Shown here one piece after another: positions 7,844 to 57,710 of a stretch of DNA of 64,000 bases. The notes under the pieces are model-generated. The model saw only the letters and a program-made list of their open reading frames with translations. It was not told the origin of the DNA and searched no databases. Each line of letters begins with the position of its first letter. The first letter of the stretch is position 1. The stretch is from a virus. Its lineage: Duplodnaviria; Caudoviricetes. The position numbers and the translations under genes are program-made. The stretch lies in IMG/VR virus record IMGVR_UViG_3300030055_000003. One strand, given 5' to 3'.

Positions 7844-7919
7844 CTAATCACCTTCTTAATATTATTTTTAGTTCTATTAATTTGTTGACTTACATTAAAA
7901 TTATTCATTTATTGGCTTT

Positions 7920-9225
7920 TTGTGAACATTATATGAACACAATTCCAATTTATAAGTCCATAAGTTATAACTCTTTAACAAGTCATACTAACTCTTATTG
8001 GATGTAAATGTACACCCTCTATTTCATCTACTTTAAAAGCTTCTGAAAATACCTTTTTAATTATATTATAAGCTCCATTAACATCTGAATTAATTAGTTT
8101 GTTTGTATTAGATTTAAATAAACCTCTTACTACACGTCTGCTTTTATTATATGTATCTTTACCTATTACTTCATTATCTAAAAAACTACAACCACTCGTA
8201 TAACTTTCGTTATTAGTTATTACTTTAATTCCTATATTAGAACACTTATATGTAATCATTTTTATTAATTTATCATATGGAATTGATATAAAATTCTGAT
8301 TAGCTGATTTGAATAAACCACTTTCCTGTTTCCAAGTTTTATTCAAACCAATTACTATGATCGTAATATTTAATCCTTCCGCATAAGTAACTATAGATTT
8401 ACTAGCATTATGTAAATAATAATTTATTTTATTATCTCTATCTTGTTGTAATTTATCTAACTTATTGCTCCAGTCCTTTTTATGTCGTTTCTTTAAATCC
8501 GACTGTAATTTAGCTTTCTTCTTATTGTAATATTGATTTATAGATTTGATAACTTTACCATTTATAATGATAGGTTGTACACCTACATTATTAACGCATG
8601 TAGCTAGGTTATCTACTCCTAAATCAATCCCTAATATTCTGTTATTGAATTCTTTAGGCTCTTGAACTTCAATCTCATAAACTATTTCTAATATGTAAGT
8701 TGAACCTTTTGGAATAATTCTAGTTTGTAATAGTTTATTTTTAACATTGGTTTTAAATAAGTTATTCAGTCCTTTTAGTGGTATAAAAGCAAAGTATAAA
8801 TATCCATCATATAAATGGGTTTGCATATTAGTCATTATAAAAATATGTCTACCATTTTTCTTTTTATATCTAGGTAATTTTGGTTTTCCAAGATATTTGT
8901 TTGGATGTTTCCAATAATCTTTTACACTTACTAAGAATGACTTCCAATCTTTACAAAGCAATCTCAATGTCATTTGTGCTGAATTTGAACCTATATCTTT
9001 GAAAGCCTCAGTCTTATTAAGTTCCTTTGACAACTCCACATATTGTAATATTGGACTACCTCTTACAAATAATTGTCTTTGAGTATAATTCGCTAGATTG
9101 TAAATGTTCTTAGCTTTAAAACAATACTCATCAAACAATTTCCATGCTTTGTGGTTTTTATCTATTATATGTCTTTCGACTCTTTGAGTTTTAATGTTAT
9201 CACCTCCTTTCAATCTTGTGTCATT
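7920..9225 (-). mobile_element. Lone-tnpB (IS1341-like) element; ends not resolved
   Basis: tnpB without tnpA; about 55 nt of 3' non-coding sequence ending near TTCAC is the candidate right end / omegaRNA region. Confidence 0.45.
7975..9213 (-). CDS. tnpB: IS200/IS605-family RNA-guided endonuclease TnpB
   Basis: RuvC-I LGIDLGVDNLA, IVIGLNKTWKQE, NESYTS, RuvC-III INSDVNGAYNI. Confidence 0.9.
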   Translation of the reverse strand: MKGGDNIKTQRVERHIIDKNHKAWKLFDEYCFKAKNIYNLANYTQRQLFVRGSPILQYVELSKELNKTEAFKDIGSNSAQMTLRLLCKDWKSFLVSVKDYWKHPNKYLGKPKLPRYKKKNGRHIFIMTNMQTHLYDGYLYFAFIPLKGLNNLFKTNVKNKLLQTRIIPKGSTYILEIVYEIEVQEPKEFNNRILGIDLGVDNLATCVNNVGVQPIIINGKVIKSINQYYNKKKAKLQSDLKKRHKKDWSNKLDKLQQDRDNKINYYLHNASKSIVTYAEGLNITIIVIGLNKTWKQESGLFKSANQNFISIPYDKLIKMITYKCSNIGIKVITNNESYTSGCSFLDNEVIGKDTYNKSRRVVRGLFKSNTNKLINSDVNGAYNIIKKVFSEAFKVDEIEGVHLHPIRVSMTC

Positions 9226-9234
9226 TTTCTTTAA

Positions 9235-9546
9235 TTACTCTACTTTTACTTCAACCCAATCTTCGGCTAATGTATCAGCTTGACTAGCATTCCAAGGAAT
9301 AACTGTATTTCCTGCTGTCTTTAATAATAAGAAATTTTCAAGTTTATATGTAGTTTTACCTACTCCTACTTCAACAATTCCTTGTAATTCAGAAACATCA
9401 TATAACTCTTCTGTAAAATTCTCATCAGCTTTCATTTTTAATGTTGAGAAATAGAAACTAAATACATGCATTCCTTTTCCATTCCAACCTTCTCTAGCTA
9501 TTGGTTTACCTTGTTTAGTTAATTCTACTGCTTTTCCAAAATTCAT
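9235..9546 (-). CDS. tad2: DUF2829 protein, Tad2-like anti-Thoeris/CBASS signal sponge
   Basis: MNFGKAVE...AREGWNGKGM...PWNASQADTLAEDW, the DUF2829 signature. Confidence 0.75.
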   Translation of the reverse strand: MNFGKAVELTKQGKPIAREGWNGKGMHVFSFYFSTLKMKADENFTEELYDVSELQGIVEVGVGKTTYKLENFLLLKTAGNTVIPWNASQADTLAEDWVEVKVE

Positions 9547-9598
9547 AATTTATTTCTCCTTTTCTTCTATTAATTTATTTAAGCATTCTTAATTTGTT

Positions 9599-9745
9599 AA
9601 TATGCTTTAAAGAATAGCTGAATTTACCGTTTCAGCACATTCTCCGATTTAAGCAATTGGTACTAACTTAAAAATCTTGGGTATCAACCTTTGAGAGTTC
9701 TTCTTTCCCTATTGAGTAGTCATTAGCTACTCTTTAAAACATATT
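9599..9745 (-). ncRNA. Candidate structured RNA / leader 1
   Basis: 21-bp closing stem (9599-9619 with 9725-9745); both mismatches are G-U pairs on the minus strand; internal hairpins; downstream of a sigma-A promoter. Confidence 0.5.
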
Positions 9746-9823
9746 ATCCTGTTTATATTAATTTATTTCACTTAATCTTTTATGTATGTTGTGGTAAAGG
9801 TGTTATTCTCTACCACAACTGTT

Positions 9824-9852
9824 ATTTTACTCTCTTATTTATTACTTGTCAA
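9824..9852 (-). promoter_or_regulatory. Sigma-A promoter
   Basis: TTGACA-17-TAAAAT. Confidence 0.7.
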
Positions 9853-9870
9853 CTACTTCTATTAATTTAT

Positions 9871-10263
9871 TTAATTGTCTAATTCATCTATCATCTTTTG
9901 AATTTCTTCTGCTGACTTACCTTTTAAATCCTCATTCTTTTTTAAGTCTAAAGCTTCTAATAATTTTTGCTTTTGTTCTTTTTTAGCTTTAGCATCTTCT
10001 CTTGATTTGGATTCAGCTTGTTTTATTTTAACTATATGTTTTACAATTTCAATTTTCATATCTAATTCTTCATCTTTTTGTGTTTTAGTATCTAATAAGC
10101 TTTCTTCCTCCACTTGTTTTAGTTGTGAATTCAATCCTTTAAAAATTGTATCTAAATCTTTAACTGATAATGACCATAACTCTTCTACTGGTTGTTGTCC
10201 TCTAAAATCAAACCTAAATTTATTCCTACTAGCTACCTCAAAAACATTCTTTTCTGTGTTCAT
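9871..10263 (-). CDS. Conserved large-phage hypothetical protein, coiled-coil C-terminus
   Basis: FEVASRNKFRF..RG...VEELW pattern; partner of the 683-aa gene. Confidence 0.6.
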   Translation of the reverse strand: MNTEKNVFEVASRNKFRFDFRGQQPVEELWSLSVKDLDTIFKGLNSQLKQVEEESLLDTKTQKDEELDMKIEIVKHIVKIKQAESKSREDAKAKKEQKQKLLEALDLKKNEDLKGKSAEEIQKMIDELDN

Positions 10264-10298
10264 AATTAATCATTCTCCTTCTTATTTATTAATTTATT

Positions 10299-12409: not shown

Positions 12410-12511
12410 AATATGCTTTGCTGAGTAGGTTAACTGTTACATTAACACTACTTTTGAAAGGAGTTTTCTATGAAACTTTTGAGTAGTTTATTCTACTCAG
12501 CAAAACATATT
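12410..12511 (-). ncRNA. Candidate structured RNA / leader 2
   Basis: 19-bp closing stem (12410-12428 with 12493-12511), one G-U; same AATATGTTTT...AAAGCATATT ends as element 1. Confidence 0.5.
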
Positions 12512-12538
12512 CTATTAATTTATTCTTACCACTCTTTA

Positions 12539-12567
12539 ACTATATCACATACAATTTCATTTGTAAA
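12539..12567 (-). promoter_or_regulatory. Sigma-A promoter
   Basis: TTTACA-17-TATAGT with TG extension. Confidence 0.6.
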
Positions 12568-12755
12568 GTGTTTATTTCTATTAATTTGTTAAGTCTTGCT
12601 AAAACATACTTTTTATTGGCTTTTTCGACTTCTACATCCTAGTGTTTAAGCCATTCTTAAAATCTGTTAATTTGATAATTCTTAGTATTTTTATTAATTT
12701 ATTAACAATTATATTTTATGTAAGTGGTAAGTTTGTTATTCCTTACCACTTCTTC

Positions 12756-15690: not shown

Positions 15691-17157
15691 TTAACAAGCC
15701 TGTACTAATTCTTGATTATGTAATCCGTTTAATTTGTTTTTAATATCATATTTTATGTATTCTTCAGGGGTTAAATCTTTTATGTATTTAAATGTATATC
15801 CTTTATATGTTTTACATTTTCCTTTACAATTTCTTGAAATCATACTACTATTGAATTTTACCCCAAATAATGCTTCACCTTTATCAACTAAATCACTAGC
15901 AGATTTAAATACCATTCCATTTGTTAAACATATTGTTTCCTTACTATTTCCATCTCCTTTGTATGTACATAATCCTCTTTCTGTTCCTCTTGTTAAATAA
16001 CTTCTAATGGTTCTTGGAGACATTTTTATATTTTTTGCTATATCATTTACATTATGTATTCCTGATTCCCACATTGTCCAAGCCATCTTAACAAAATTTA
16101 ATAAAGCAAATTCTTCAATTTTGTTCCAATCTATATTATTTAAATCAAACAATTTATTTAATTTATTATTATTAACTATATTCTGTCTTATGTAGTTAAA
16201 TCTGTTTTCTATATTAAGATAATCACAATCAATTCTTATAACTTCAATTCCTTGTTTTTCAGCTAATTTATCCTTTTCATCATCTATAAATTGACTTTTT
16301 TCCTTGGTTTGTCCACTCATAGAATTATCATGATTGTGAAATCCACCGTCCATCTCTAATATATATTTCTTATTGTTTAATTCGAAATAAAAATCATATG
16401 ACTTAGGTTTAATCCATTCTGGAGAGTATTCTGATACAAAATCTATATTCAATTGTTCCAATAAATTGAAGGCAAACTTATTTGGATATTTCACACTATT
16501 CCCACATGAGCATCCTATAGAGTGATATTTATAAATGTTAGCTATAATTACTTTAGTACTTTTAACTCTACCACAAACAGGACATATTGGATAAATCTTT
16601 TTACTGCTTGATTTAGTATATTTCTTAGCCTCATCATATCCACCTTGAAAGTAAGGTATCATCCAAGGTGCAGTTGTAGGTATGTCTTTTATACCTTCTA
16701 CTACTATTTGATTTTCACAACATGCACAATTTTGTCCTTTTAATAAATTACTTTCTAATATCCATCCTTCATATCCATCTTTATTACAATGATATTTGTA
16801 ATATTTTTTATTTCCATATGTATTACATCTTTTTCTATATTCTCTATCTATAATTATTAAATCCCTTCTTTCACTTTTAAATGTTGTATCTATATTTACT
16901 TTAAAATCTGATGTGTATATACCTAGCAATTTTCCCAAGTGACATTTTATAAATGCAGAAGTTGTTATTTTAAAAGGTGGATTATTCAAATATTTAATAA
17001 ATATATATGGCATTTTGTACGATATAATTTTAACTTCAAAATTTATATTATCGTAAACTCCTTTTACATTATAATCTATACTCTTTTTCCAATTTATGTA
17101 ACCTTTATTATTTTCTTTTTCATACCCAGGTAAATCGTCTAAAAACATTTTTCTCAT
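15691..17157 (-). CDS. Free-standing Vsr/EDxHD-like (DUF559-type) endonuclease with zinc ribbons and NUMOD1-like tail
   Basis: CxxC repeats, YDFYF...ILEMDGGFH, IRIDC, ICLTNGMVFKSA. Confidence 0.65.
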   Translation of the reverse strand: MRKMFLDDLPGYEKENNKGYINWKKSIDYNVKGVYDNINFEVKIISYKMPYIFIKYLNNPPFKITTSAFIKCHLGKLLGIYTSDFKVNIDTTFKSERRDLIIIDREYRKRCNTYGNKKYYKYHCNKDGYEGWILESNLLKGQNCACCENQIVVEGIKDIPTTAPWMIPYFQGGYDEAKKYTKSSSKKIYPICPVCGRVKSTKVIIANIYKYHSIGCSCGNSVKYPNKFAFNLLEQLNIDFVSEYSPEWIKPKSYDFYFELNNKKYILEMDGGFHNHDNSMSGQTKEKSQFIDDEKDKLAEKQGIEVIRIDCDYLNIENRFNYIRQNIVNNNKLNKLFDLNNIDWNKIEEFALLNFVKMAWTMWESGIHNVNDIAKNIKMSPRTIRSYLTRGTERGLCTYKGDGNSKETICLTNGMVFKSASDLVDKGEALFGVKFNSSMISRNCKGKCKTYKGYTFKYIKDLTPEEYIKYDIKNKLNGLHNQELVQAC

Positions 17158-17228
17158 TTACATTCACTCTCTTTCGTTCTATTAATTTGTTGCTAATCTA
17201 TATTAATTTTAATTATTTCCAAATTTAA

Positions 17229-27007: not shown

Positions 27008-27074
27008 AATTTCGATTCTCCTTTATTCTTCTATTAATTTATTTAACTTACCTTAAAATCAAGATCTTATGTGC

Positions 27075-37359: not shown

Positions 37360-37605
37360 TTTCCTATCTCCTTTTTATAATTTATTAATATTCCATTCAA
37401 ATCCATATTTTATTGCCTTTTTATTTATTAAAAGTCTCTTTATATAATTTATCTATTTTCTTTTCTAAAGAATTACTAGCTTCTGAGCCATCAGATTCAC
37501 CACACATCATATCACTTAACCATAATATTTCTGAATCAGATAATTCTAATACTTTAATTTTATTTTTTAATTCATTATACATATTAATATCCTCCCATCT
37601 TTTAA

Positions 37606-37908: not shown

Positions 37909-38019
37909 CTTAATCTCTCCTTTATATTTTCTATTAATTTATTCTATTAAAATCAACCATTTACGGTAATTTCCTAGAACTGATTTTTATTTTTAATTCT
38001 AGGAAGTTATCTGTTTTTA

Positions 38020-39537: not shown

Positions 39538-39591
39538 TTACTCATTTCCTTTCTTCTATTAATTTATTTAACACTTGTTAAAATTAACTAT

Positions 39592-41578: not shown

Positions 41579-41613
41579 TTCTTTAACCTCTTTCTTCTAT
41601 TAATTTATTTGAA

Positions 41614-44035: not shown

Positions 44036-44040
44036 CTTCC

Positions 44041-44238
44041 TTATATTTCTTTACCTTCAAATTCATATAATTTTTTAGCACAATGAGTTTTAAAATTATC
44101 TACAGTATTCACAGTCCAATAACAATCTAAACTTTTATCTTCCCAAACCATAACTCTTACGCCTTTTGCATAACACCTACTATTCCATGATAAATCTACT
44201 TCTTCAATTATTTCCACAATATAATATTTTGGTATCAT
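44041..44238 (-). CDS. Hypothetical protein
   Basis: ORF with SD. Confidence 0.5.
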   Translation of the reverse strand: MIPKYYIVEIIEEVDLSWNSRCYAKGVRVMVWEDKSLDCYWTVNTVDNFKTHCAKKLYEFEGKEI

Positions 44239-44310
44239 ATTTTTTCTCCTTTCTAATTGATAATAATTCCCATTAAAACACGTCTTTTAACAAAATTTTA
44301 CATTTAATCA

Positions 44311-45417: not shown

Positions 45418-45422
45418 AGTTT

Positions 45423-45905
45423 CTATGCCTCCATTAATTTATTTATATTTACATATATTTCTTTATTCTTGTCTAAATTATAATCTGTTTCTACTATTTC
45501 ATAATCATCTAATACTTTTGATTTTTTAATTTTATTATATATTATATCTTCTTCATCTAAAAACATATTTTGATACTTTTCATATCCTAATTTATCTACT
45601 GATAATTTATGTATAAACGACATATTTAACATATTTTTATCGTTATCTATAAATGGATTTTCAAAATTAAATTCATTTTCAAATTTCCATGTAGATTTTC
45701 CTCCTTTAAATATTTTTATTTTTGCTATTACATTAAAACTACATGGTGTAAGATATTCATATTTTGTTGGATTTACCCATGCATTGCTTCTTATACGACA
45801 ACTCGTAACTGTTAAAAGATAGCCTTCTATAGAAGATTGTTCTTCTTTTAATGGAATAAATATTCTCTCTACAGATCCGTTATATTTTAATTCTATCACT
45901 TTCAT
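45423..45905 (-). CDS. Hypothetical protein
   Basis: ORF with SD. Confidence 0.55.
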   Translation of the reverse strand: MKVIELKYNGSVERIFIPLKEEQSSIEGYLLTVTSCRIRSNAWVNPTKYEYLTPCSFNVIAKIKIFKGGKSTWKFENEFNFENPFIDNDKNMLNMSFIHKLSVDKLGYEKYQNMFLDEEDIIYNKIKKSKVLDDYEIVETDYNLDKNKEIYVNINKLMEA

Positions 45906-45943
45906 TTTTAATTCCTCCTAAATATTACCATAAAATATCACTT

Positions 45944-46270
45944 CTATTCAATTTTATTTCTTCTTCCATATTTCTTAGCATCTCTTAAATAATTATAATC
46001 ATCTTTTACTCTACATTCTTTACAAGCATCCCATAAAAGACTTTCTTGCGTATAATCGGTATATCCTAAATATTCACATGTATAAACTATATCACGACAT
46101 GAATTTCTTGGAGTTGTCCAACATTCTTCATTGCAATTATTGGCATGTTCACAATTTGTTTTGTTTCTTTTTATAGTTGTTATGTATTTTCTCCAAGGAC
46201 ATTTTGCTTTTGGGTTATAACAATAACAAGTATCTTTAGGAATCCATTTCTTCATTGCTCTCTTTTTCAT
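45944..46270 (-). CDS. Cys-rich hypothetical protein
   Basis: IPKDTCYCY...CPWR...WDACKEC. Confidence 0.55.
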   Translation of the reverse strand: MKKRAMKKWIPKDTCYCYNPKAKCPWRKYITTIKRNKTNCEHANNCNEECWTTPRNSCRDIVYTCEYLGYTDYTQESLLWDACKECRVKDDYNYLRDAKKYGRRNKIE

Positions 46271-46316
46271 ATTATCACTTCCTTATGTATTTCTATTAAT
46301 TTGTTTGTCTAAACTA

Positions 46317-46345
46317 ATATTATCATAAACTACCAATCAATGCAA
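46317..46345 (-). promoter_or_regulatory. Sigma-A promoter flanked by two motif-A copies
   Basis: TTGCAT-17-TAATAT; motif A at 46291 and 46352. Confidence 0.55.
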
Positions 46346-46390
46346 TAGTAATTCTATTAATTTATTTAAATATTTTAAAAAGCAATAAAA

Positions 46391-46420
46391 GAGAACTATA
46401 AAAATTCAATTATAGTTCTC
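46391..46420 (-). terminator. Intrinsic terminator
   Basis: GAGAACTATAA...TTATAGTTCTC perfect 11-bp stem followed by UUUUAUU. Confidence 0.75.
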
Positions 46421-46429
46421 ACAACTCTG

Positions 46430-47866
46430 TTATTTAGTATTTTCTATAGCATAATTAATTCTATTTAACAAATTGCTTATGGTAACATGCTCCATAAACT
46501 GATACTTTTCATTCCTAACCTCATTATTAACGTAGTAGTCTTTTGCATTCTCTATTAAAGTATTTATATAATGTCTTGAAGTTCCAGTACAACATATAAC
46601 TACATCATAACTCACTAATTTTGAAATAATCTTTAGTGGACTTTCTGAATAGGTATCAAATCCACTAACTTTTAAATTATATTTCTTTAACTCACTTATA
46701 TATAATTTTTGATTAAATGAATTAATAATCAATACTTTTTGATTATTAAAATTTTCATAATTGATGTATTCTTTTTTTATATTCCCTGTTCTAATCACTT
46801 TAAGCTTATTATCTTTTCTTAAATTCATTTCATAAAGATGGCTAATCAACTCTTCTTTACTTTCAATATAAGGATATATATTTGTAATTACATATTCATT
46901 ATTTTCATCATTAAATTCAGCTACGCAAAAGACTTCTTCTAAATCTTCTATATAATACTTACTAGCATTTACATTATCAAAAGTATTCCCATTATAGTCT
47001 ATATAAATGTATTTATCATCGTTATTCTTTAACATACCCATAGATTCTTTTATTTTAACTAGAACATGTCTAGGATTATCTGATTTTATACTTAGTTTAT
47101 TTTCTTTTGTAGTATCGACTACAATTTCTTTTACTTTTTCAGTAGGTTCATATATTTCTAATTTTTTTCTTAAATTTTGATTTTCCACACTTAAGCTATA
47201 CTTATCATTTTCCAATGATTCTATTTGTTGCTTATACAAATTACTATATCCATCAAGTTTATTGATTCTTAAACTGTCTACATCCTTAATTAACGTTGAA
47301 ATAATTTCAGTTTTACCACCTAATTGAGTCCTTAAGTCTCTGTTTGAAACTGATAATAATTCTAATTTTTCACTAAGTTTTCTAAGCATGTTTTGTTGCC
47401 CTATCTGTCGCTTGTATTTATAATATTCTTTTGATAAATCTTTATGAACTTTTTGTAATATATAATATTGTAATTTAATATCATCATATTTTTCTTTTAA
47501 GTTCACAAGGTTAGTCTTGTTTATATTTATATCATCATTTAACTTCTTATTAGTATTAGCATATGATAAAATTTTCTTTTCTAATTTTTTAGATTTTGTA
47601 ATAGCTAATGTTTTTTCAACTTTTAATACTTTCATTTGATTTTTAAGTATCTTTAGTTGTTCAGCATGTTTATTAATCTGAATTTTGTCATTGTTGCTAT
47701 CCTCCTTATTATCAACTTCAATAATCTCATTATTTTTAGTCAATTCCTTAGATTTTTCCTCAAATTGTTTCTTTAATAACTCTCTCTTTTCTTCCATGAG
47801 TTTTTTATTTTTATCTACTATATCTGGTGGTTTTCCAAAGTTTTTTATTATTATTCCATAGCCCAT
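46430..47866 (-). CDS. Long coiled-coil protein with C-terminal DUF2325-like domain
   Basis: Heptads across residues ~15-240; KVLII...YDVVICCTGTSRH. Confidence 0.55.
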   Translation of the reverse strand: MGYGIIIKNFGKPPDIVDKNKKLMEEKRELLKKQFEEKSKELTKNNEIIEVDNKEDSNNDKIQINKHAEQLKILKNQMKVLKVEKTLAITKSKKLEKKILSYANTNKKLNDDININKTNLVNLKEKYDDIKLQYYILQKVHKDLSKEYYKYKRQIGQQNMLRKLSEKLELLSVSNRDLRTQLGGKTEIISTLIKDVDSLRINKLDGYSNLYKQQIESLENDKYSLSVENQNLRKKLEIYEPTEKVKEIVVDTTKENKLSIKSDNPRHVLVKIKESMGMLKNNDDKYIYIDYNGNTFDNVNASKYYIEDLEEVFCVAEFNDENNEYVITNIYPYIESKEELISHLYEMNLRKDNKLKVIRTGNIKKEYINYENFNNQKVLIINSFNQKLYISELKKYNLKVSGFDTYSESPLKIISKLVSYDVVICCTGTSRHYINTLIENAKDYYVNNEVRNEKYQFMEHVTISNLLNRINYAIENTK

Positions 47867-47968
47867 TAATGTACACCTCCTTAATCTATATTATAGACTA
47901 AGATAGTATTAATATTCACTATATACCATTTTTCAATCTAATATATCATACAAAAATAAGGAAAGCAT

Positions 47969-49261
47969 TTAACCCTCCTTACGTAATTCTGTTCCATCAA
48001 TGATTAAATTAACTTTTCTACAATCTAACTTATCTTCATTTCTATATTTTATATCATAATAATCATTTATATCCAATACAAAATTAGACAAATGCCATAT
48101 TCTAGTTACTCCATCTTTGTTAATTCTAGTAATTATAAATCCACTTATATTGATTAACCATTGATATTTTGACACTTTTGAAATATCTTCTTTATCTATA
48201 ATCACTTTTACTTCGCTATTATTTCTTTTAATGGATATATATGCAATATCACCACATTCAATAATTAAATTTTTATGAACCTTTGTATGTTTTGTTTCTT
48301 CATTATTAAGCAAATTTAGTTCTTTTTTAACCTTTTTCCTTCTGTCGTATTCAATCTCAACTGCACCTAACCAATTAAAAAATATATGCATTATTTTATA
48401 TATATTAGCTTTACATATTATTTCTTTTGGATACCATATTTTAAATTTTTCTTCTATGGTTACAAAATCTATATCATATTTCCCATTATATAATTCATAT
48501 AAATAATCCATTCTTGCAGAACTCTCTAAATCATATAGTGCTATTCTCTTTATATTTATAACCTTACACGCCTTGTAAATTCTAGAATTAAGTGTATCAT
48601 AATTAACAATTTCATGGTTTTTGCCTTTTATTATATGAAAAATGTTTTTGTTAAAATCAATATATTTCTTTTTATGGATTTCCTTTGCTAAATCCATCCA
48701 TTTTAAGAAATCAGAATCCACACTAATATGCAGAATTATTTCTTCTTCTTCATTAAATATAATCACTTCTTTATTTTTAAAATCTATATCTTTCCACTTT
48801 ATTTGCCTAGCATATATCATCTTCTGACCAGTAATACCGTATCTAGCTAATATTAAAGGTAAAACATTGTCTATGCCATTTGCTTCAAAAATTTTTCTAC
48901 ACAAATTAAAAAAATTATACTTAGAAATATACCAAGAATTATCTACTTTGTTTTTTCGTTTTAATTTAAATTCTTTGAGTTCTTTATGATAACTTTTAGA
49001 ATACCATTTTAAATAAAATTTAATAAAAGAATTAAATGTATATAATATACTGTCACTTAAGTCTGTGACTTTTTCATTACATTTTTTAATTTCATCTTCT
49101 CCAAAATCATATAAGTCTTTATTAGATTCATTTTCAATGTCAGCTATATAATTCATATACAAGTTCCAATTTGTAATTTCAGTAGATTTAGAGTAATTAG
49201 AACCTTTAAAAAATAAATATTTATTTACTTGAAATTGACTAGGTATAGGCATAAATTCCAA
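47969..49261 (-). CDS. MrpR/tyrosine-recombinase-like protein fused to a degenerate HNH-like domain
   Basis: E....KDLYDF...EI, LARYG, IKWKDIDF; C-terminal IIDKED...KYQW...WHLSNFVL...DKLDCRKVNL. Confidence 0.6.
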   Translation of the reverse strand: MEFMPIPSQFQVNKYLFFKGSNYSKSTEITNWNLYMNYIADIENESNKDLYDFGEDEIKKCNEKVTDLSDSILYTFNSFIKFYLKWYSKSYHKELKEFKLKRKNKVDNSWYISKYNFFNLCRKIFEANGIDNVLPLILARYGITGQKMIYARQIKWKDIDFKNKEVIIFNEEEEIILHISVDSDFLKWMDLAKEIHKKKYIDFNKNIFHIIKGKNHEIVNYDTLNSRIYKACKVINIKRIALYDLESSARMDYLYELYNGKYDIDFVTIEEKFKIWYPKEIICKANIYKIMHIFFNWLGAVEIEYDRRKKVKKELNLLNNEETKHTKVHKNLIIECGDIAYISIKRNNSEVKVIIDKEDISKVSKYQWLINISGFIITRINKDGVTRIWHLSNFVLDINDYYDIKYRNEDKLDCRKVNLIIDGTELRKEG

Positions 49262-49622
49262 TTAAATCACCTCCAATGGTTATATTATTGCCAAAAAACA
49301 TTAACAATATAACCATTTTTGATAAAATTTTTATCCTTTATTAAAATAAATTAAAGTAATTTTTAAGTATCAAATATTTATTAAACTTAATGTATATTTA
49401 TTTTTATATTACACATAATACTATTGTAATGAAATAACAAAAACATGGTTATATTTATAGCTATTGTTATTGCTATTTCATACATAAAATTAAGCCTGTT
49501 GGATATTTATTTTCTAAGCAATTATATTTTATCCTACAGGCTGTTTTATATTTAATATTTTATGTTTATTAATTGAAAATCAATTTAAAATGCAAATTTT
49601 ATTTGGTTTTTAGCAAAAGTTA

Positions 49623-49647
49623 AAAGGCTATAACTTAGTCATAGCCT
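49623..49647 (-). terminator. Probable terminator
   Basis: AAGGCTAT...ATAGCCTT stem followed by U residues. Confidence 0.55.
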
Positions 49648-49664
49648 TATTCTTGTTTTTTTTA

Positions 49665-50921
49665 CTATTCTTGAAAAGATAAAGCAAACCTAGCTTCTTT
49701 ATCAACTATCCCAATTTTTTGTTCAAGTCTTACTATGTATGATTTAAAGTCTATTTCCTTATTGTCATCTAATTTAAATGATTTGATTACATTTTGTAAG
49801 GTGTCTTTTTGTTCTTGTGTTAGTTCATCTATTATTAAAGTTATTCTTAAACTGATTTCAAATGATTTACATAATTCTTTTTCAAATTTTCTGTCAACTT
49901 CTCTTTCTTTAATATTAGGATATATATTTTCCATCCATACTTTTATTTTTCTTCTTAAGTTTTCATTTTCATTTACATACTCAATTATCTTATCTGTCCA
50001 ATTATTAATAGTATCTCTCCTTATGTTATTATCAGTAACAATACTAAAATTAGATGCAAACCTCATTAATTGAGGGATTATATGACCATTAAAATATTCA
50101 AATTTTTCTTTACTTTTTAATTTCCCTTCTCCATAGCATTCATACTCTATTAAATTTACTTTAAAAGGAGAATTGTTGTTTTTATTATAGATTATCATTA
50201 TTGCATCTGGTATAGTTTCGATTCCAATAACTCTATCTTTGTTTGAATTTTTAATTGATGTAGTTTTAAACTTTCTATTATCTGAAATCAAAATACTATC
50301 TTCCTCTTGGAAATGGGTAAATAAATTGTAAAAATTATCACTAACTAACCCTTCTAATCCCATAACTTTATCAGTTTCATTTTTGAATTTAATAGTTTGA
50401 AAAGTTCCCATTATATCTAGTTTTTCATTGTTTTCTTCACAAATTTCTTCAGTATCAATACTATTATTAGAATCTTCCTCCTTTTGTTGAATTTCTTTTT
50501 TATATTCATCAAATATGAAAACATTATTAATTTTGTTTTCATTGAATGTATTGTTTAATAAATCTACAGTAGTTTCGTTTTTAATAGTTTTAGACATTTG
50601 TAATATTTTTGCTCCCCAGTATTTCCCTTCGTATTGTTTGACTATATTTATGGCAAAAGGTTGACAATATTCCAAATTAATAATATTAAAGCATTGAACA
50701 TATTTATCTGCATCTTCCCAAGGTTTGTAATCGGTAGGTGCGTCAAGAATTCCTCTAGCACCACAAACTGTAACTTTATCCACTTTAACTACAATATATA
50801 TAATATCTCCTTTTTCTGCTATTCTTTGTGCAAAACCTGCTACTTTTTCATTAATACATAAATAATAATTATCTATCATTTTAGAACAATTTAAAACTCT
50901 AGCACTTACCATAATAATCAC
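49665..50921 (-). CDS. Putative EVE/PUA-like domain plus PD-(D/E)xK-like nuclease
   Basis: N-terminal N...C...VAG...GDIIY...CGARG...PW.D; C-terminal IPDAIMI...LIEYE. Confidence 0.45.
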   Translation of the reverse strand: MIIMVSARVLNCSKMIDNYYLCINEKVAGFAQRIAEKGDIIYIVVKVDKVTVCGARGILDAPTDYKPWEDADKYVQCFNIINLEYCQPFAINIVKQYEGKYWGAKILQMSKTIKNETTVDLLNNTFNENKINNVFIFDEYKKEIQQKEEDSNNSIDTEEICEENNEKLDIMGTFQTIKFKNETDKVMGLEGLVSDNFYNLFTHFQEEDSILISDNRKFKTTSIKNSNKDRVIGIETIPDAIMIIYNKNNNSPFKVNLIEYECYGEGKLKSKEKFEYFNGHIIPQLMRFASNFSIVTDNNIRRDTINNWTDKIIEYVNENENLRRKIKVWMENIYPNIKEREVDRKFEKELCKSFEISLRITLIIDELTQEQKDTLQNVIKSFKLDDNKEIDFKSYIVRLEQKIGIVDKEARFALSFQE

Positions 50922-51011
50922 TCTTTTCCTTATTTATGTATTAATACTATCAGATTTTACCTATAAAATAAATATAAATTATATTTGATATGTTTATTTA
51001 TGTATTTTAAT

Positions 51012-51740
51012 TTATTTTTTATATGTAAATAGCTTTTCAGTTCTGATATTCTTACCATCACCAGCTACTTTATTACTATCAATGTTTACTATAATTTCTT
51101 TCTGCCATATACATTCAAATTCTTCAGGCATATTATATTCACTTATTAAAACTGTATTATGTACGCTCATATCTTTTACCCATTTATAAAATTCTTCATA
51201 TGGAAACTTTTCTGTTTTATATTTTGTAGTGTCTCTATATGGTATGTCACAATAGATGATGTAGTTATTAATTTTATCCAATGGTAAATCTAAAAAGCTT
51301 GTACATTTGAAATCAATACCTTCTAAGTTAGGAGCTTGTTTTTTTAGATTTTTAATTGCACCTGCTGACCATTTACCACTATTATCATCTTTACTATCTC
51401 TAGCGTATCCACCAAAATACTTAGCACTAAAACTAGCACAGAATCCAACTAAACCCACAAACCATTTTTCATATTTATCCTTATTATTTTTGACTTCTAT
51501 GTACTTATCTTCTAATATTCTTTCGGGCAATAAACCACTAAATTCTTGTGCATATTTTAATAGTTCAATTAATTCCTCATGTATATCACAACCTATACGT
51601 TTCTTACATTGTATTTTATCAATCATATTTGCCCCACCTACGAATGGTTCTAAATATCCCTTAGTATTTTGGGTTATGTATGATTGTATAATTGGTGCTA
51701 ATTCTTTGCTTAATTTATTTTTACTTCCTACATATCTCAT
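51012..51740 (-). CDS. D12-class N6-adenine DNA methyltransferase (Dam-like)
   Basis: RYVGSK, EPFVGGANM, YCDIPY, LISEY. Confidence 0.85.
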   Translation of the reverse strand: MRYVGSKNKLSKELAPIIQSYITQNTKGYLEPFVGGANMIDKIQCKKRIGCDIHEELIELLKYAQEFSGLLPERILEDKYIEVKNNKDKYEKWFVGLVGFCASFSAKYFGGYARDSKDDNSGKWSAGAIKNLKKQAPNLEGIDFKCTSFLDLPLDKINNYIIYCDIPYRDTTKYKTEKFPYEEFYKWVKDMSVHNTVLISEYNMPEEFECIWQKEIIVNIDSNKVAGDGKNIRTEKLFTYKK

Positions 51741-51743
51741 TTA

Positions 51744-52499
51744 TTATATTCCTTCTTTCTTTATTATTTCTATTAATTTATTTCTATAGCTATTATGTAT
51801 AAATAATTTTTCTGTATCTTGTTTTCTGCTATTCTTATCTAATGTAGTAGTTAAAGTCTTTTCATAGATGCATTTAAAATCGTCTGGGGCATTATATTCA
51901 CTGACCAATACTATATTAGTTTCACTCCATTCTCTAACCTTGTCCCAAAATAATTCATAATCAAAATCTTTGCTAGAACCATATTTTGTTGTTCCTTGAT
52001 ATGGAGGATCACAATATATTAGATTGCTTGTTGGATTTAATTCTGTATAATCTGAATGTATAAATTTAGTATCTAATAATCTATCTCTTTGTTTTAATAT
52101 ATTTCTTATAGCTTCATCATAATAATCTCTAATAGTTCCTATTTTAGTATTTACTTTTCCTGCATATCCTCCAAACCATTTAGAATTATATGTAGCACAG
52201 AATCCAGCTATAGCAACTAATGATTGTCCATATTCATCTTTATTATTTTTAATGTTATTATACATTTCTCTACTCATTTCTGAAGGTGGATTCCAACCAT
52301 CTATTAAATCATTCCATAAAGCCATTAGATATTTATTATTATCATAACCTATTTTATTTTTGCATTGAATATGTTCCATCATATTAGCACCACCAACAAA
52401 AGGTTCTATGTACGCATCAACATTATTCTCTTTTATTAATTTATTTATTATTGGAGATATATCTTTTGACAATCTCGCTTTGCTACCCATATATTTCAT
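51744..52499 (-). CDS. D12-class N6-adenine DNA methyltransferase (Dam-like)
   Basis: KYMGSK, EPFVGGANM, YCDPPY, LVSEY. Confidence 0.88.
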   Translation of the reverse strand: MKYMGSKARLSKDISPIINKLIKENNVDAYIEPFVGGANMMEHIQCKNKIGYDNNKYLMALWNDLIDGWNPPSEMSREMYNNIKNNKDEYGQSLVAIAGFCATYNSKWFGGYAGKVNTKIGTIRDYYDEAIRNILKQRDRLLDTKFIHSDYTELNPTSNLIYCDPPYQGTTKYGSSKDFDYELFWDKVREWSETNIVLVSEYNAPDDFKCIYEKTLTTTLDKNSRKQDTEKLFIHNSYRNKLIEIIKKEGI

Positions 52500-52609
52500 T
52501 TATATTATTCGCTCCTTTTATATTTATTTTAATTTATTATCACTTGATAAAATAGCCATTTTATGTAAATATTTGAGAGCTACAGACTAGCTATAGCCTC
52601 ATTATATCA

Positions 52610-53224
52610 TTATCCAACTTGTTCTGTAAATTTAATATCTGAAATTTTTATTTTTCCAGTAATTAACCTATCCCATTGTTCAATATACGCCTTGACAAAA
52701 TCATTTGGGGTATTTATACCATTAGGATACTTATCTTCTTCTATGGAAAATCCTCTTTCTACTGATCCTCCGTCAGTCTGTTTAAGTAAACTTAATAAAT
52801 ACTTAGATATTTCTGAATTAGAATTTAATTCAATTTTCCATTCTAAAAATGATAAAGGAATAACATATAACATTTCATTATTTATAATTATAAAATCTAT
52901 ACCTCTATTCTTATCAAATGTATTTGCTTTATTAACCATATTTACAATGGTTTTTAACATTTTTATCACATTAAATTCATTGTTGATACATTCCTTAATT
53001 AACCACTGAGAATATTTTGTATGAAATCTTACATATTCAACCATTCCTTTTTTCATATTTTGAATATTATACCTTTTACATAAATCTTGAGATTTTCTTT
53101 TTTCATTCAACATATTAATATTGAATTCAGATAATAAAGCTTCTTGTATAAAATCCTTAGACATTTTAAAATTATCACTTATCATAGGACTATTTATCCA
53201 ATATTCGCTCATAATTAAGCACAT
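52610..53224 (-). CDS. Hypothetical protein
   Basis: 204-aa co-oriented ORF. Confidence 0.55.
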   Translation of the reverse strand: MCLIMSEYWINSPMISDNFKMSKDFIQEALLSEFNINMLNEKRKSQDLCKRYNIQNMKKGMVEYVRFHTKYSQWLIKECINNEFNVIKMLKTIVNMVNKANTFDKNRGIDFIIINNEMLYVIPLSFLEWKIELNSNSEISKYLLSLLKQTDGGSVERGFSIEEDKYPNGINTPNDFVKAYIEQWDRLITGKIKISDIKFTEQVG

Positions 53225-53300
53225 CCTTTCAAATTAATCAATGTTATTATATCCGCATATTTGAAAGAATATACATATTTCCAATTTTTCTTATTTTTAA

Positions 53301-54080
53301 TTAATTTATTTTAATATATTCTTTCTTTTTAAAGTCTATTGGTTTAAATAAATCTATGTCCTCTATAATATCTATAATTGTTCTTTTTTCACATCTATTT
53401 AACTTTGTATATCCTTGTAAGAATCCTTTAACTTTCCATAACCATTCATTATTCTCCAGTAAAGAATTATAAGTATCCTTTTTATAATTCTTTTTAAATT
53501 CTTCTGCCTGTATCAAAGTCAAGAATACATATTTTACTGGAATAGCTTTTTTATATTCTCTTGTATAGATTTGTTTACACTCAATTCTATCAATTGTATT
53601 TAAAAAAATATCATTCCAACGTTCAGAATATATCCAAACTTGAAGTCTACTAACTAAAACTTGATTATCAGATTTTTCACATTCTCTCTTTTGAATTTCC
53701 ACATACTTGAATTGCAATTCATCAAATAAACAAATATATTCATCATCTTCTTTATTGAAAGAATAATAGTAATTACCTTCATTATTCTTATAAACTTTTT
53801 TAGTTTCACTGTCTTCAATCTGCTTTTCCAAATAAATTGTTATTATAGGTCTATAACTTCTTCCTTTATCATCAGTTTTTCTAGCCTTAGCTTTTTTTAA
53901 CATTACTTTTTCATTATTGATAGAAACTCTTGTTCCTCCTACTTTGACCGATATAAATTCATCTATGTAACCTAAAAGGTTATTATTATTATCAATTATG
54001 CAATAATAATCATTAGATAATATTTCATAATCTTGTATTAATATGTAGTCCATTTTTACGCATCTCCTTATTAATATCAC
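53301..54080 (-). CDS. Hypothetical protein
   Basis: Co-oriented ORF; SD before MDYIL. Confidence 0.55.
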   Translation of the reverse strand: MILIRRCVKMDYILIQDYEILSNDYYCIIDNNNNLLGYIDEFISVKVGGTRVSINNEKVMLKKAKARKTDDKGRSYRPIITIYLEKQIEDSETKKVYKNNEGNYYYSFNKEDDEYICLFDELQFKYVEIQKRECEKSDNQVLVSRLQVWIYSERWNDIFLNTIDRIECKQIYTREYKKAIPVKYVFLTLIQAEEFKKNYKKDTYNSLLENNEWLWKVKGFLQGYTKLNRCEKRTIIDIIEDIDLFKPIDFKKKEYIKIN

Positions 54081-54133
54081 AATTTTAGATTAAATTATAA
54101 TTTATTTTTATATTCACTTAACATTTTACTTAC

Positions 54134-54556
54134 TTATATATAACATTCGGTACAATATAACATATAACCATTCTCAGTTTTAGTTGGTAACTCATCTTTG
54201 TATCTTAAATCAAAATCTTCATAAAATTCTTTCTTACAACTAGGACAATAACATTTTATAGATGTTGTATTTATATTAAATGTTACATAACCAATATCTT
54301 GAGCTTTAATATTGTACACATTACAATATTTCATAAATTCATTAATATCATCAAATCCAATAAATTTACTATCATATAATCCTTTATTGGTAATAAATAA
54401 GAATGGATTTTTAATATCTTATATAGTTGGTTTTAATATTACTTTCACATATTCTTTATTTTTTAAATAATAATCTGTATCAAAACAGGCTATATATTGT
54501 TTAAAATTAGGTTCTGTTCTTAGTATTATATTTTTAGTTTTCTTTGTTAATTTCAT
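54134..54556 (-). pseudogene. Nonsense-interrupted copy of the 15210-15629 gene
   Basis: ATG at 54556 (MKLTKKTKNIILRTEPNF...); CAA-to-TAA at 54419-54421; frame continues to CTECYI. Confidence 0.8.
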
Positions 54557-54721
54557 CAGTTCCTCCTTTAATAATTACGAATATCTTTAAATTTAACCGA
54601 TATATTCACTCCATATTCTTTTAACCTTTTAATTTTCTTTTGACATTTAATGTACTTCTTAACCTTTTTATAAAATCTTATTGGATTTAATATCATTCAA
54701 TCACCGCTTACTTCTATTAAT

Positions 54722-54916
54722 TTATTTAGTTCTTAATTTAAATAACTCATTTTGTATAATTAATGATTTAAATTCATATATAGGCATGTCATCATTATAG
54801 TTAGAAAAACTATTTATATCTATCCCTAAAGCTACTAACTTTTCATCCAACTCCTTTTCACTATATCCTGAATAATCTTCATAAAAATTACATTTAGATC
54901 TTAATCCTCTTTTCAT
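54722..54916 (-). CDS. Short paralog of 21861-22211
   Basis: RGLRSKCNFYEDYSGYSEKELDEKL...KSLIIQNELFKLR. Confidence 0.65.
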   Translation of the reverse strand: MKRGLRSKCNFYEDYSGYSEKELDEKLVALGIDINSFSNYNDDMPIYEFKSLIIQNELFKLRTK

Positions 54917-54917
54917 A

Positions 54918-55325
54918 TTATTCGCCTTCTCTCAAATAATCAAACCTTTTTAAATATATATATTTCTTTTTAAAGTCATTAGGTAGCTTACTCCATTGTT
55001 CATCTGAATATATTTCATGTTGTCTTCCTTTAACTCTATGACCTACAAAATATCCATATCCTCCACATTTAGGGCAATACTCATCATCTTCATTGTCTAT
55101 ACTAGATGACTCTTGATAGCCACAACTATCACAATAAGCTATTTCTTCTATATTTTCTTTAGTAATATCTATGATTATTTTCTTGCCTTTATAATACCAA
55201 GTTGGCTTTCTACCCTTTAATTTAGTTACCATTTCAAACAATATTCTTTCTACAACAGCAGTATCTTTAGAACTATGAATATAATTTTGAAAATTTTTAA
55301 TTTCTGATAAGTTTACTGTTTCCAT
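54918..55325 (-). CDS. Hypothetical zinc-finger protein
   Basis: YCDSCG...YCPKCGG. Confidence 0.6.
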   Translation of the reverse strand: METVNLSEIKNFQNYIHSSKDTAVVERILFEMVTKLKGRKPTWYYKGKKIIIDITKENIEEIAYCDSCGYQESSSIDNEDDEYCPKCGGYGYFVGHRVKGRQHEIYSDEQWSKLPNDFKKKYIYLKRFDYLREGE

Positions 55326-55386
55326 CTTTGTACCTCATACTTTCTATTAGTTTATTTCCTTTTAAAATTCACCATTTATTGGAATG

Positions 55387-55578
55387 TTATTTAGACTTTA
55401 ATTTATCTTCTATTTCTTTCAAAGTATATCCATCACATATGTACTCCATATCCTTATCAAAGCATGTCCAAAATGAACTACCACTATCAAATCCAAATGC
55501 TTTATCAAGTATACAATTATATTTATTTTCAATACTTTTCTTTGTTAAACTCATAATTATCTCCTTCCTACATTCCAT
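55387..55578 (-). CDS. Hypothetical protein
   Basis: Co-oriented ORF. Confidence 0.5.
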   Translation of the reverse strand: MECRKEIIMSLTKKSIENKYNCILDKAFGFDSGSSFWTCFDKDMEYICDGYTLKEIEDKLKSK

Positions 55579-55835
55579 AGTAAATTATTTTTCTTATATA
55601 TCGTTTCTAATAATATTTTTTGATACCATTTTAATTTAATACCTAAATAATCTTCGGCAAAATCTACTTGACTCTTGTATTTATTCTTAAACTTTATAAA
55701 TTCTTCTTTCCATATTTTATCTGTAATTTCTTCACAAATACTTCTATATTTTTCTTTAGAATAGTAATATGTACTTGAAATAATGTTATCTAACTCTTTA
55801 GAGAAATTCCATAATTCAAGCCTTTCTTCATTCAT
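55557..55835 (-). CDS. Small protein ending in a terminase N-terminal-like motif
   Basis: DFAEDYLGIKLKWYQKILL...LLWNVGRR. Confidence 0.55.
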   Translation of the reverse strand: MNEERLELWNFSKELDNIISSTYYYSKEKYRSICEEITDKIWKEEFIKFKNKYKSQVDFAEDYLGIKLKWYQKILLETIYKKNNLLWNVGRR

Positions 55836-55837
55836 AT

Positions 55838-56212
55838 CTATCTCACTCCTTCAATCTTCTTGATTTTATTCATTAATGATTCCTGCTTATATATTTCAAC
55901 CTCTAATCGTAAATTGTAATTCGCTTTAAGAATACTATCATATTCTTTTCTTAACCCCTTATAAGCCTTATCAAATCCATTTTTGATCTCATCTATGTAT
56001 TCTAAGTCATTAATCTTAATTGACTTAACTATAGGGTTTATTTCCTGTTTGTTTGCTTGATTCTTTAACATTACATTAGTAAAAGTCAGTTTCTTTATAC
56101 TCTTATCTTTCTCCTTAATCTTATCTTGAATCAGTAAACATAAGTTTTCTGAGTGCATATTGATTCCTAGTACATTTGCTATTCTTTGTAATTCATTTGT
56201 CATTTTAATCAT
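55838..56212 (-). CDS. Coiled-coil hypothetical protein
   Basis: Co-oriented ORF. Confidence 0.55.
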   Translation of the reverse strand: MIKMTNELQRIANVLGINMHSENLCLLIQDKIKEKDKSIKKLTFTNVMLKNQANKQEINPIVKSIKINDLEYIDEIKNGFDKAYKGLRKEYDSILKANYNLRLEVEIYKQESLMNKIKKIEGVR

Positions 56213-56397
56213 CCTTCTTTCATTTATTATTATCTTAATTTGTTTCCTTTGAATATTTAGCTTTCAAATCATAAACCCTATTGCATATTGTTTTTTCATT
56301 AATCATTTCATTATATGCACATTTATAACAGCTATTAAATTTACATTCTTTGTCAATAATTCTATCAGCTTCTAATATTAATTCTTTAATCATATAT

Positions 56398-56820
56398 TTA
56401 TTCCTCCTCTAAGAACTTATTACATACAAAATTATTATAATCTTTTATTTGTGTATATAATCCTATTAAATCTTCCATAACTTTATCCTTGACATAACAT
56501 CCAGCAAAAGTATCTAATTGAAATTGCCCTATTATTTCATCTGTAGCCTTTGGACATGATTTTAATAATCTTTCTTTAGCCAATTCATCAGCTTGATTCT
56601 TATTTAAAAATGGTTTTATTCTTTTTTCTATTACTTTAGATATAAATTTTCTTTTATCTTTAAAGTAATTAATTGTTTCTAATTTTAATTCATTTTGTTC
56701 ATATTTTGTATTTAGTAAATCACACAATTCTTCTGTTATTTGTTCTCCATAATAATATTTGTCTTTATATTCAATCCAACTGCCTATAGTTAATCCAAAT
56801 CTTATTTTACTTTTATTCAT
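56398..56820 (-). CDS. Hypothetical protein
   Basis: ORF with SD. Confidence 0.55.
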   Translation of the reverse strand: MNKSKIRFGLTIGSWIEYKDKYYYGEQITEELCDLLNTKYEQNELKLETINYFKDKRKFISKVIEKRIKPFLNKNQADELAKERLLKSCPKATDEIIGQFQLDTFAGCYVKDKVMEDLIGLYTQIKDYNNFVCNKFLEEE

Positions 56821-57021
56821 TTTATATTCCTCCTCACTCTTCTTAAAATCTCAATTTATTTAGTTATATTTCTATTAATTTATTGACTACCATACTATTT
56901 TTAATTCTTCTTGGATTTCTTGGTCAATGTTATTTATAGTAATATATACTTTAAATAAGCCACTTAACACAATCAATCCAAATGTAAACATTATTAATTT
57001 TAACATACTTTTATCCTCCTC

Positions 57022-57687
57022 TTAATGATTAGTTACACTCTTTTTTCTATCAATGAATTCTATATACTGTTCTTTTTCATTGATTATATATCTTTTATAA
57101 GCTGACTTCCTATTCTCAATTACATTATTTTTATTCTTTTCTGAAGTATATCTTAATTTAATATTACTACCTTTAAATTTAGGGACTCTTTCAGATGCTT
57201 CATATATTTTACTTTCATCTGAATTAAATTCATTCAAATCATCACTTGCTTTTTTACTATAAACAATATTGTTAACTATATTTTCTACTTCTTCTAAAAT
57301 ATCCCCAGTCATTTCTAATTGCCTTTTATGATATCCGTTTTCAAAATTCAATTTTTCCAAACTATTTGCTTGTCCATTAATGTTTGATTCTTTTATAGAA
57401 AATCCTCCTAATTGTTTAATTAATAATTCCATAGTTTTTAACTCATTCTTTGTTGTTCTCCTTGCTTTTCTTAATTTGTTTAATGCTTTGCAAAACTTCC
57501 ATCCAGTATACAAACTAAACTTTTCTAACCCTTCAATCTTATGTAATAAATCCTGTTGAACATCATTAAATACTTTATCTTTTATCCTAAGTTTATTATA
57601 ATATTCTTTAGCTTCTGTAATTTGTTTATTAATTTCATTGGCATAATCTACTGCAATACACATTTTCATCTTTCCTTTCACTATCAT
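57022..57687 (-). CDS. Helical hypothetical protein, first gene after a promoter
   Basis: QQDLLHKIE...LRKARR..KNEL. Confidence 0.6.
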   Translation of the reverse strand: MIVKGKMKMCIAVDYANEINKQITEAKEYYNKLRIKDKVFNDVQQDLLHKIEGLEKFSLYTGWKFCKALNKLRKARRTTKNELKTMELLIKQLGGFSIKESNINGQANSLEKLNFENGYHKRQLEMTGDILEEVENIVNNIVYSKKASDDLNEFNSDESKIYEASERVPKFKGSNIKLRYTSEKNKNNVIENRKSAYKRYIINEKEQYIEFIDRKKSVTNH

Positions 57688-57710
57688 TCTATTAATTTGT
57701 TTATATTAAC

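Follow-up and report, generated by a model that had tools for sequence, protein, structure and literature searches.

A 15-bp repeated element of phage SPbeta, SPBRE, was predicted in 1999 (Lazarevic, as cited under reference 31 in PMC10516654). The element is bound by MrpR, the phage's master repressor, according to chromatin affinity purification coupled with sequencing (ChAP-seq), electrophoretic mobility shift assays and lacZ fusions (Kohm et al., 2023; PMC10516654). The SPbeta boxes located next to a Shine-Dalgarno sequence (SD), those of yopM and yopV, are ChAP-seq peaks of this DNA-binding repressor (PMC10516654). In phage phi3T, SroF recognises an asymmetric A-tract box of 26 bp, around which it clamps as a monomer, and it has many sites genome-wide (bioRxiv 10.1101/2025.11.27.690993). 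Here we describe a repeated 15-bp word, AAYAAATTAATAGAA, referred to as the box, in a 64,000-nt stretch of the virus record IMGVR_UViG_3300030055_000003 from the IMG/VR database. This stretch, the window, corresponds to positions 39,600-103,599 (reversed) of the 140,944-bp record, and coordinates are those of the window unless they are assigned to the record. The word is very likely this phage's own docking site, of the SPBRE/Phi3TRE type, for a master repressor of the MrpR (YopR/SroF) family, and the best candidate for that repressor is an integrase-fold protein of 369 aa encoded on the minus strand at 61547-62656.

For comparison, the box sets of SPbeta and phi3T were re-derived from public records. 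SPbeta yielded 11 + 1 copies of ACAAATACAAAWAATATGTAT, all 12 of which are co-oriented with the genes. The boxes at aimR and the first copy at yonX lie 7 nt before the -35. The rest occupy the spacer or the -10 of TAGACA-17-TATAAT promoters or, as the second yonX copy and those of yopV and yopM do, the stretch from the -10 to the SD. The yonX promoter is bracketed by a box pair, 64 bp apart. From phi3T we obtained 21 forward and 2 reverse copies of (A/T)AGAATAAAAATAAAAT(T/A)A, which abut either the -35 or the SD and form pairs ∼88 bp apart.

Number, orientation and placement of the box

An earlier note on this DNA had counted 17 exact copies of the word in coding orientation, with well under one expected by chance. 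A pattern search on both strands recovered the same 17 coordinates, all on the minus strand, and 100 dinucleotide-preserving shuffles of the window gave a mean of 0.07 and a maximum of one match. All long open reading frames (ORFs) of the window are on the minus strand, which is thus the coding orientation. Allowing up to two mismatches raised the number to 59, against 12.6 expected on both strands; every one of these matches is on the minus strand and none on the other. The GC content of the window is ∼25%, with constant skew.

Over the whole record we found 32 exact copies, 27 forward and 5 reverse, and besides these 47 one-mismatch copies; a first-order Markov model predicts 0.05 exact and ∼2 one-mismatch copies per strand. 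The resulting 79 copies span record positions 1,350-137,276. While those of the window are all co-oriented with the genes (37 of 37), the record as a whole holds 69 co-oriented and 10 inverted copies, and the strand polarity, once the whole record is counted, is strong, not absolute. The 15 bp of the box are strictly kept, with weak flanks (T-T-A before the box and A at the third base after it), and the commonest one-mismatch variants are G13T (AATAAATTAATATAA) and T11C. The repeated word is real and its family is larger than the earlier note had seen. About 84% of the copies (66 of 79) are intergenic, here meaning outside a rough ORF map of the record, in which intergenic DNA makes up 15%.

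The 66 intergenic copies fall into five groups. Upstream of a forward sigmaA-type -35 there are 18, for the most part at a distance of 4-11 nt, and another 10 follow a -10 by 9-24 nt. Promoter overlap accounts for 8, with some weak promoter assignments among them. A further 20 stand directly before an SD without a recognisable promoter, and 10 are in other places. The corresponding shares in a random intergenic control were 7.8% upstream of a -35 in the same sense, 8.4% downstream of a -10 and 8.7% overlapping a promoter.

The exact copies of the window, all on the minus strand, illustrate these classes. Upstream of a -35 are the boxes at 9857-9871, 4 nt from the promoter TTGACA-17-TAAAAT (9824-9852), at 12576-12590, 8 nt from TTTACA-17-TATAGT (12539-12567), at 35638-35652, 6 nt from TTGACT-17-TATACT (35603-35631), and at 46352-46366, 6 nt from TTGCAT-17-(TG)TAATAT (46317-46345), the last following a terminator-like hairpin. 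Downstream of a -10 are the boxes at 12510-12524 (14 nt, 12539-12567 promoter), at 46291-46305 (11 nt, 46317-46345 promoter; 20 nt before the ATG) and at 57687-57701, 9 nt from the -10 of the promoter TTGACA-17-TATACT (57711-57739). Direct pairs bracketing a promoter are thereby formed by 12510/12576, 66 bp apart, and 46291/46352, 61 bp apart, with 12510 and 46291 as the downstream members. The box at 57687 is paired in the same way with a one-mismatch copy at 57756-57770, 16 nt upstream of the -35 and 69 bp away.

Directly before an SD we find the boxes at 7872-7886 (the AAC variant; 28 nt before the ATG of ORF 7547-7843), 9565-9579 (18 nt before the ATG of ORF 9235-9546), 17177-17191 (19 nt, ORF 15691-17157), 27029-27043 (21 nt before the ATG), 37929-37943 (20 nt before the ATG) and 39554-39568 (16 nt, ORF 38434-39537). 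The box at 41595-41609 is separated by 4 nt from the preceding stop codon and by 16 nt from the ATG that follows. The copy at 51768-51782 falls within the final codons of an ORF for a D12-class adenine methyltransferase (51744-52499), where it reads NKLIE in frame, and 27 nt before the ATG of ORF 51012-51740. No promoter was recognised near the remaining two, at 54712-54726, which overlaps the stop of ORF 54722-54916, and at 56870-56884, 49 nt before the ATG of ORF 56398-56820. These placements agree with the earlier note where it had put 9857, 12576 and 46352 just upstream of -35 boxes, 12510, 46291 and 57687 just after promoter starts, 9565, 27029, 39554 and 41595 in the gap from a stop codon to the following SD (here measured as 16-21 nt ahead of the ATG), and the NKLIE reading inside the methyltransferase.

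Outside the window, the record's left 30 kb contains all the inverted copies (record positions 1350-29697). Every one of the 10 is tied to a forward sigmaA-type promoter, either within its spacer or upstream of it at -2 to 11 nt. They are often preceded by a dyad, the order in the left arm being dyad, inverted box, promoter. Since the inverted copies are all found at forward promoters, the element would appear to act on DNA and not on RNA. Their placement fits a protein-binding site on DNA, rather than a signal in sense RNA or an independent promoter.

The candidate repressor and its box

The 369-aa protein scores 27 bits against the Pfam family PF22822, exactly at the cut-off. A profile of its family (39 homologues) aligns with SPbeta YopR with a probability of 94% and an E value of 9e-8 over 240 columns (hhalign), and its homologues carry PF22822 together with PF22823. 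The AlphaFold2 (AF2) model of the protein has a predicted local distance difference test score (pLDDT) of 83, and its best Foldseek matches are 9rd5 (phi3T SroF bound to DNA), 8a0a (MrpR) and 8bj6 (YopR), with E ∼2e-12; true tyrosine recombinases rank lower (E 1e-6 or worse). A Pfam scan of the protein gave no match to PF00589. No Tyr C-terminal of residue 238 is invariant or nearly so in the 39-sequence alignment.

Directly upstream of this gene, at 62658-63998 on the minus strand, is a YopQ-like (DndB-like) gene, as in the yopQ-yopR order of SPbeta; its product matches SPbeta YopQ with E 1e-8 over 382 aa (BLASTP). Directly downstream of the repressor gene and ahead of a MazF-like gene, an array on the minus strand (61195-61473) with a period of ∼88 bp holds four one-mismatch boxes (starting at 61195, 61281, 61371 and 61459), interleaved with three near-consensus TTGACA-17 promoters (61227-61255, 61317-61345 and 61406-61434). 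The record also encodes a second MrpR/SroF-family paralogue of 430 aa (47969-49261, minus strand), which scores 25.9 bits against PF22822, aligns with the family with a probability of 98% and E 6e-15 (hhalign), and has a weak Phage_integrase match. Both MrpR-like genes that the earlier note had proposed are thus real on the evidence of PF22822, hhalign and the fold matches. A search for a separate repeat family belonging to the 430-aa paralogue gave only variants of the same core, such as AATAAATTAAGATAA. The 369-aa protein is the better candidate for the binder, given its yopQ-yopR position and the adjoining array of boxes and promoters.

The anatomy of the box set reproduces that of SPBRE and Phi3TRE, and the earlier proposal of a repressor operator tied to the MrpR-like proteins is well supported. 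Like SPBRE, the box is a 15-bp asymmetric AT-rich word that is distributed between genes across the early arm, co-oriented with transcription, and found ahead of the -35, within promoters or in the interval from the -10 to the SD. The two systems also have in common a promoter-bracketing direct pair (yonX in SPbeta; 46291/46352, 12510/12576 and 57687/57756 here), an integrase-fold repressor encoded after a YopQ-like gene, and, in part, the core ACAAAT..AATA. They differ in the word itself (ACAAATACAAAWAATATGTAT in SPbeta, AAYAAATTAATAGAA here) and in copy number (∼12 against ∼79). Whereas SPbeta boxes are mostly in the promoter spacer or the -10, those described here are mostly beside promoters or before SDs. 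Ten copies are inverted here and none in SPbeta, and a dyad stands 9-10 nt upstream of 14 copies here but of only one (aimR) in SPbeta. Our phage further differs in having two repressor paralogues and a host that is probably Clostridium-like.

The likeness to Phi3TRE lies in an asymmetric box with polarity, which SroF clamps as a monomer in phi3T (PDB 9rd5), in the many copies over the early arm (21 + 2 in phi3T) that abut the -35 or the SD, and in the ∼88-bp spacing of the phi3T pairs, which recurs in the array after the repressor gene. SroF is, moreover, the best structural match of the modelled 369-aa protein. The phi3T box is longer, however, at 24-26 bp, compared with 15 strictly kept bp and weak flanks here, and neither an antirepressor (Sar) gene nor a LexA box was identified on our record.

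By analogy with phi3T SroF, one repressor monomer would clamp one asymmetric box, and this would explain the polarity of a box that has no dyad symmetry of its own. Boxes beside, inside or just after host-type sigmaA promoters may block the binding or the escape of RNA polymerase and in this way keep the early/replication arm silent in the lysogen; pairs 59-69 bp apart would often bracket the promoter. The promoter-less boxes before SDs could serve as roadblocks to read-through or as anchors that raise the local occupancy of the repressor. If so, a function can be assigned to ∼80 intergenic sites. The array is an extension of the known SPbeta/phi3T system and not a new kind of system. What it adds to SPbeta and phi3T are the inverted boxes upstream of the -35, the promoter-less SD boxes, a fixed composite of dyad and box, and the two paralogues.

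The word was followed through relatives of the phage. It is kept in the locus L014, whose repressor is 85% identical, with 7 copies at up to one mismatch in 12.6 kb, some of them at orthologous places, including the pair around a TTGAC promoter. No copy of the word was found in the loci of three further relatives, L015, L016 and L017 (repressors 71%, 64% and 45% identical). In these three, the corresponding positions on either side of the repressor gene and ahead of SDs are occupied by different AT-rich repeats, namely ATAAATACAACAAATTA(W)AAA, CAAAAATAAATTAHAAAT and AGATAAAATATA. An ACAAAT / AATAAA(A)T theme is common to the words of the relatives, the SPbeta box and the phi3T box. These sequence comparisons support a box that would be specific to its cognate repressor, and each phage appears to have its own box word matched to its own repressor. 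A distant relative, L013 (repressor 46% identical), has TTCATGAAAC in three copies about a single TTGACA promoter (L013:4437-4523), which suggests a different, palindromic operator there.

Database scans with the exact word found no arrays in IMG/VR, all of the at least 116 matches listed being single copies. A 20-mer extension of the word gave 29 matches in 185,579 species genomes, all of them single, chance-like copies. Neither the IMG/VR matches listed nor those in the species genomes pointed to a host or to a further close relative. A single-protein search of IMG/VR returned no close relatives, and an alignment-based search returned none in genome contigs and only two distant loci in IMG/VR.

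Several points weigh against the repressor-docking reading. Docking by this phage's own repressor is something we infer from the analogy with SPbeta and phi3T. The sequence link between the 369-aa protein and YopR is remote (16-18% identity), with the Pfam score at the cut-off, and either of the two paralogues on the record is a candidate binder. The co-variation of repressor and box comes from six relatives, each represented by 11-21 kb. For ∼45% of the intergenic copies no promoter could be recognised in the vicinity, and these stand in sense orientation immediately ahead of an SD; the explanation we offer for them is by analogy with the same class in SPbeta and phi3T, together with the roadblock idea. 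Finally, the record is an early arm without the late/structural arm, and the box distribution is thus that of the early arm alone.

Alternative readings of the word

As an alternative, the word could work in RNA: a sense copy in the 5′ untranslated region might be an enhancer or an operator of translation, mark a site of RNase processing or act as a nut-like signal. About 30 of the 66 intergenic copies do have the sense orientation and lie in the interval that separates a -10 or a stop codon from the following SD, most commonly 16-21 nt ahead of the ATG; none in an SD-adjacent place is inverted, and the word is A/U-rich like S1-type enhancers. Against this, the 18 copies upstream of a -35 and the 10 inverted ones at forward promoters lie outside the sense leader of the gene that they precede. 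RNA folding found no excess structure in 80-nt stretches around the exact copies (mean z -0.14), and the SPbeta boxes at like places, those of yopM and yopV described above, are peaks of a repressor that binds DNA. We consider an RNA leader element improbable.

A second possibility concerns the dyad that accompanies part of the boxes. The dyad TAAAW-N6-TTTTA lies 0-15 nt upstream of 22 co-oriented copies (at most two mismatches in the box); the gap is exactly 9-10 nt for 14 of the 22, compared with 5% in the intergenic control. The linker between dyad and box is semi-conserved (a-y-a-A-G-r-G-T-T), giving a composite of ∼40 nt that consists of stop codon, dyad, box and SD. Examples in the window are TAAAT-N6-TTTTA at 7896-7911, 9 nt upstream of the 7872 box; the exact dyad TAAAAAGTATGTTTTA at 12600-12615, 9 nt upstream of the 12576 box; and one-mismatch dyads at 27054-27069, 37948-37963 and 39579-39594, which are 10, 4 and 10 nt upstream of the boxes at 27029, 37929 and 39554, respectively. 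About 10 more are found on the record, and SPbeta (before aimR) and phi3T have the composite once each, with a gap of 8. The upstream GATTTTA was also considered as the -35-like box of a bipartite promoter; it proved to belong to the TAAAW-N6-TTTTA dyad, as its right arm, and no hexamer resembling a -10 stood at a workable spacing.

Dyad and box together might constitute a modular gene-junction cassette that combines repressor docking with a crossover or homology site for cassette swapping, perhaps with the aid of the 430-aa MrpR-like paralogue or of the record's intact tyrosine recombinase. If true, this would be an integron-like shuffling system built from a repressor array. It is an idea that we hold very unlikely.

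A related proposal of the earlier note takes the word itself as a homology joint for gene shuffling; word and SD at gene starts would then give short homology for cassette exchange between related phages. PeSL (promoter-early stem-loop) cassettes of T4-type phages have as their repeated unit an early promoter plus a stem-loop. What our boxes have in common with them is that a regulatory word recurs at gene starts, in the direction of transcription and near mosaic boundaries. Four of the five homology-block starts relative to L014 fall within 20 nt of a box copy, and unrelated places share a 33-bp stretch of box and SD at 94% identity. One cassette swap is bounded by a box-like word with SD on the left and by a box on the right: a 531-aa multi-helix-turn-helix gene (57769-59364) here takes the place of a 322-aa gene in L014 (L014:8121-9089), and homology resumes from the box-like word and SD on the left and 10-15 nt before the box on the right. 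A homologue of the 322-aa gene is present elsewhere on our record (record positions 37342-38310), again behind a box-like word with SD.

On the other hand, boxes are at gene starts and mosaic boundaries fall between genes in any case, and the two would be expected to coincide even without a causal link. L014 is the sole relative close enough for a comparison of breakpoints. L017 has cassette boundaries at the same places despite its different word, and the tight register with -35 and -10 boxes would be left unexplained. The word also differs from PeSL in lacking a stem-loop (the mean z given above), in that only about half of the copies have a promoter, and in matching the family of repressor boxes rather than a promoter. 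As boxes are at gene starts, and L017 has such boundaries with another word, we treat a joint as a possible by-product and not as the function. The block starts and the swap with boxes at both ends, in one relative, are compatible with that secondary role; as the primary reason for the word we regard a joint as very unlikely.

The T4-type unit of early promoter and stem-loop was not found in our box set, which shows no excess structure and has ∼45% of its copies without a promoter. DNA contigs of four peat runs, compared with the stretch, showed only contig breaks and short-sided joints at boxes such as 46352 and no usable structural variants; the breaks at box copies arise because repeats break assemblies.

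The word could also be what a phage sigma factor or a phage RNA polymerase recognises at middle or late genes, in which case it would often form a tandem with a host-type early promoter. T4- and T7-type promoters typically look like this, being conserved, oriented and separated from the start codons by a short, nearly constant distance, and the 531-aa protein encoded nearby has a helix-turn-helix and weak matches to sigma region 4. Transcription that began at or after the word would, however, leave the SD-adjacent class almost without a leader, and inverted copies would drive antisense RNA, yet each of them is in register with a forward sigmaA promoter. No phage RNA polymerase or clear sigma gene was found on the record, and a like word in homologous phages is an experimentally shown repressor site. 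A phage-specific promoter is therefore hardly to be expected here.

A nut-like antitermination site, which the earlier note had listed among the candidate roles, shares with lambda nut only an oriented element in early transcripts downstream of promoters; it was rejected, as there is no boxA/boxB-type hairpin and no excess folding energy (the same mean z), the copies are far too many, and those that are inverted or upstream of promoters lie outside transcribed leaders and cannot act in the sense transcript of the following gene.

Further copies, gene content and habitat

The window contains 16 further one-mismatch copies (9753-59390, minus strand), mostly G13T or T11C, with placements as for the exact copies. 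They start at 9753, 12689, 12791, 15190, 21059, 22292, 22685, 28026, 31347, 31406, 35930, 43063, 52431, 55342, 57756 and 59376.

PHROG and Pfam scans of the record proteins identified a DnaB-like helicase, a primase, a RecJ-like exonuclease, a DNA polymerase of 1,104 aa, a topoisomerase II, a ribonucleotide reductase, an NAD ligase, methyltransferases and an integrase. None of the large record proteins that were scanned was recognised as structural, and the record has no tRNA genes. By this gene content, the peat-derived record represents an SPbeta-like phage's early/replication arm. The MrpR-like protein gave no match to SPbeta YopP in a direct BLASTP comparison, and no Sar-like antirepressor gene was identified on the record. 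A search for LexA (Cheo) boxes returned only four GAAC-N4-GTT words with no obvious link to an antirepressor, their placement relative to genes being unchecked. A 412-aa ORF at 7975-9213 matches the phage transposase family phrog_506 (E 1e-44) and may represent an insertion element in the early arm.

Named homologues of the 369-aa protein are from Clostridium gelidum and C. beijerinckii, in agreement with the base composition, and the host is probably Clostridium-like, not Bacillus. Repressors of the MrpR/SroF family with a dispersed, one-directional array of boxes thus seem not to be confined to Bacillus phages. For an uncultured peat phage whose repressor has relatives in Clostridium genomes, the 369-aa protein can be named as the probable master switch of lysogeny. 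The region 44000-63900 was present at 98-100% of sampled words in 24 peat metagenome runs, with a word depth of up to ∼160 in the runs compared, showing that the phage or its lysogen is abundant in peat.

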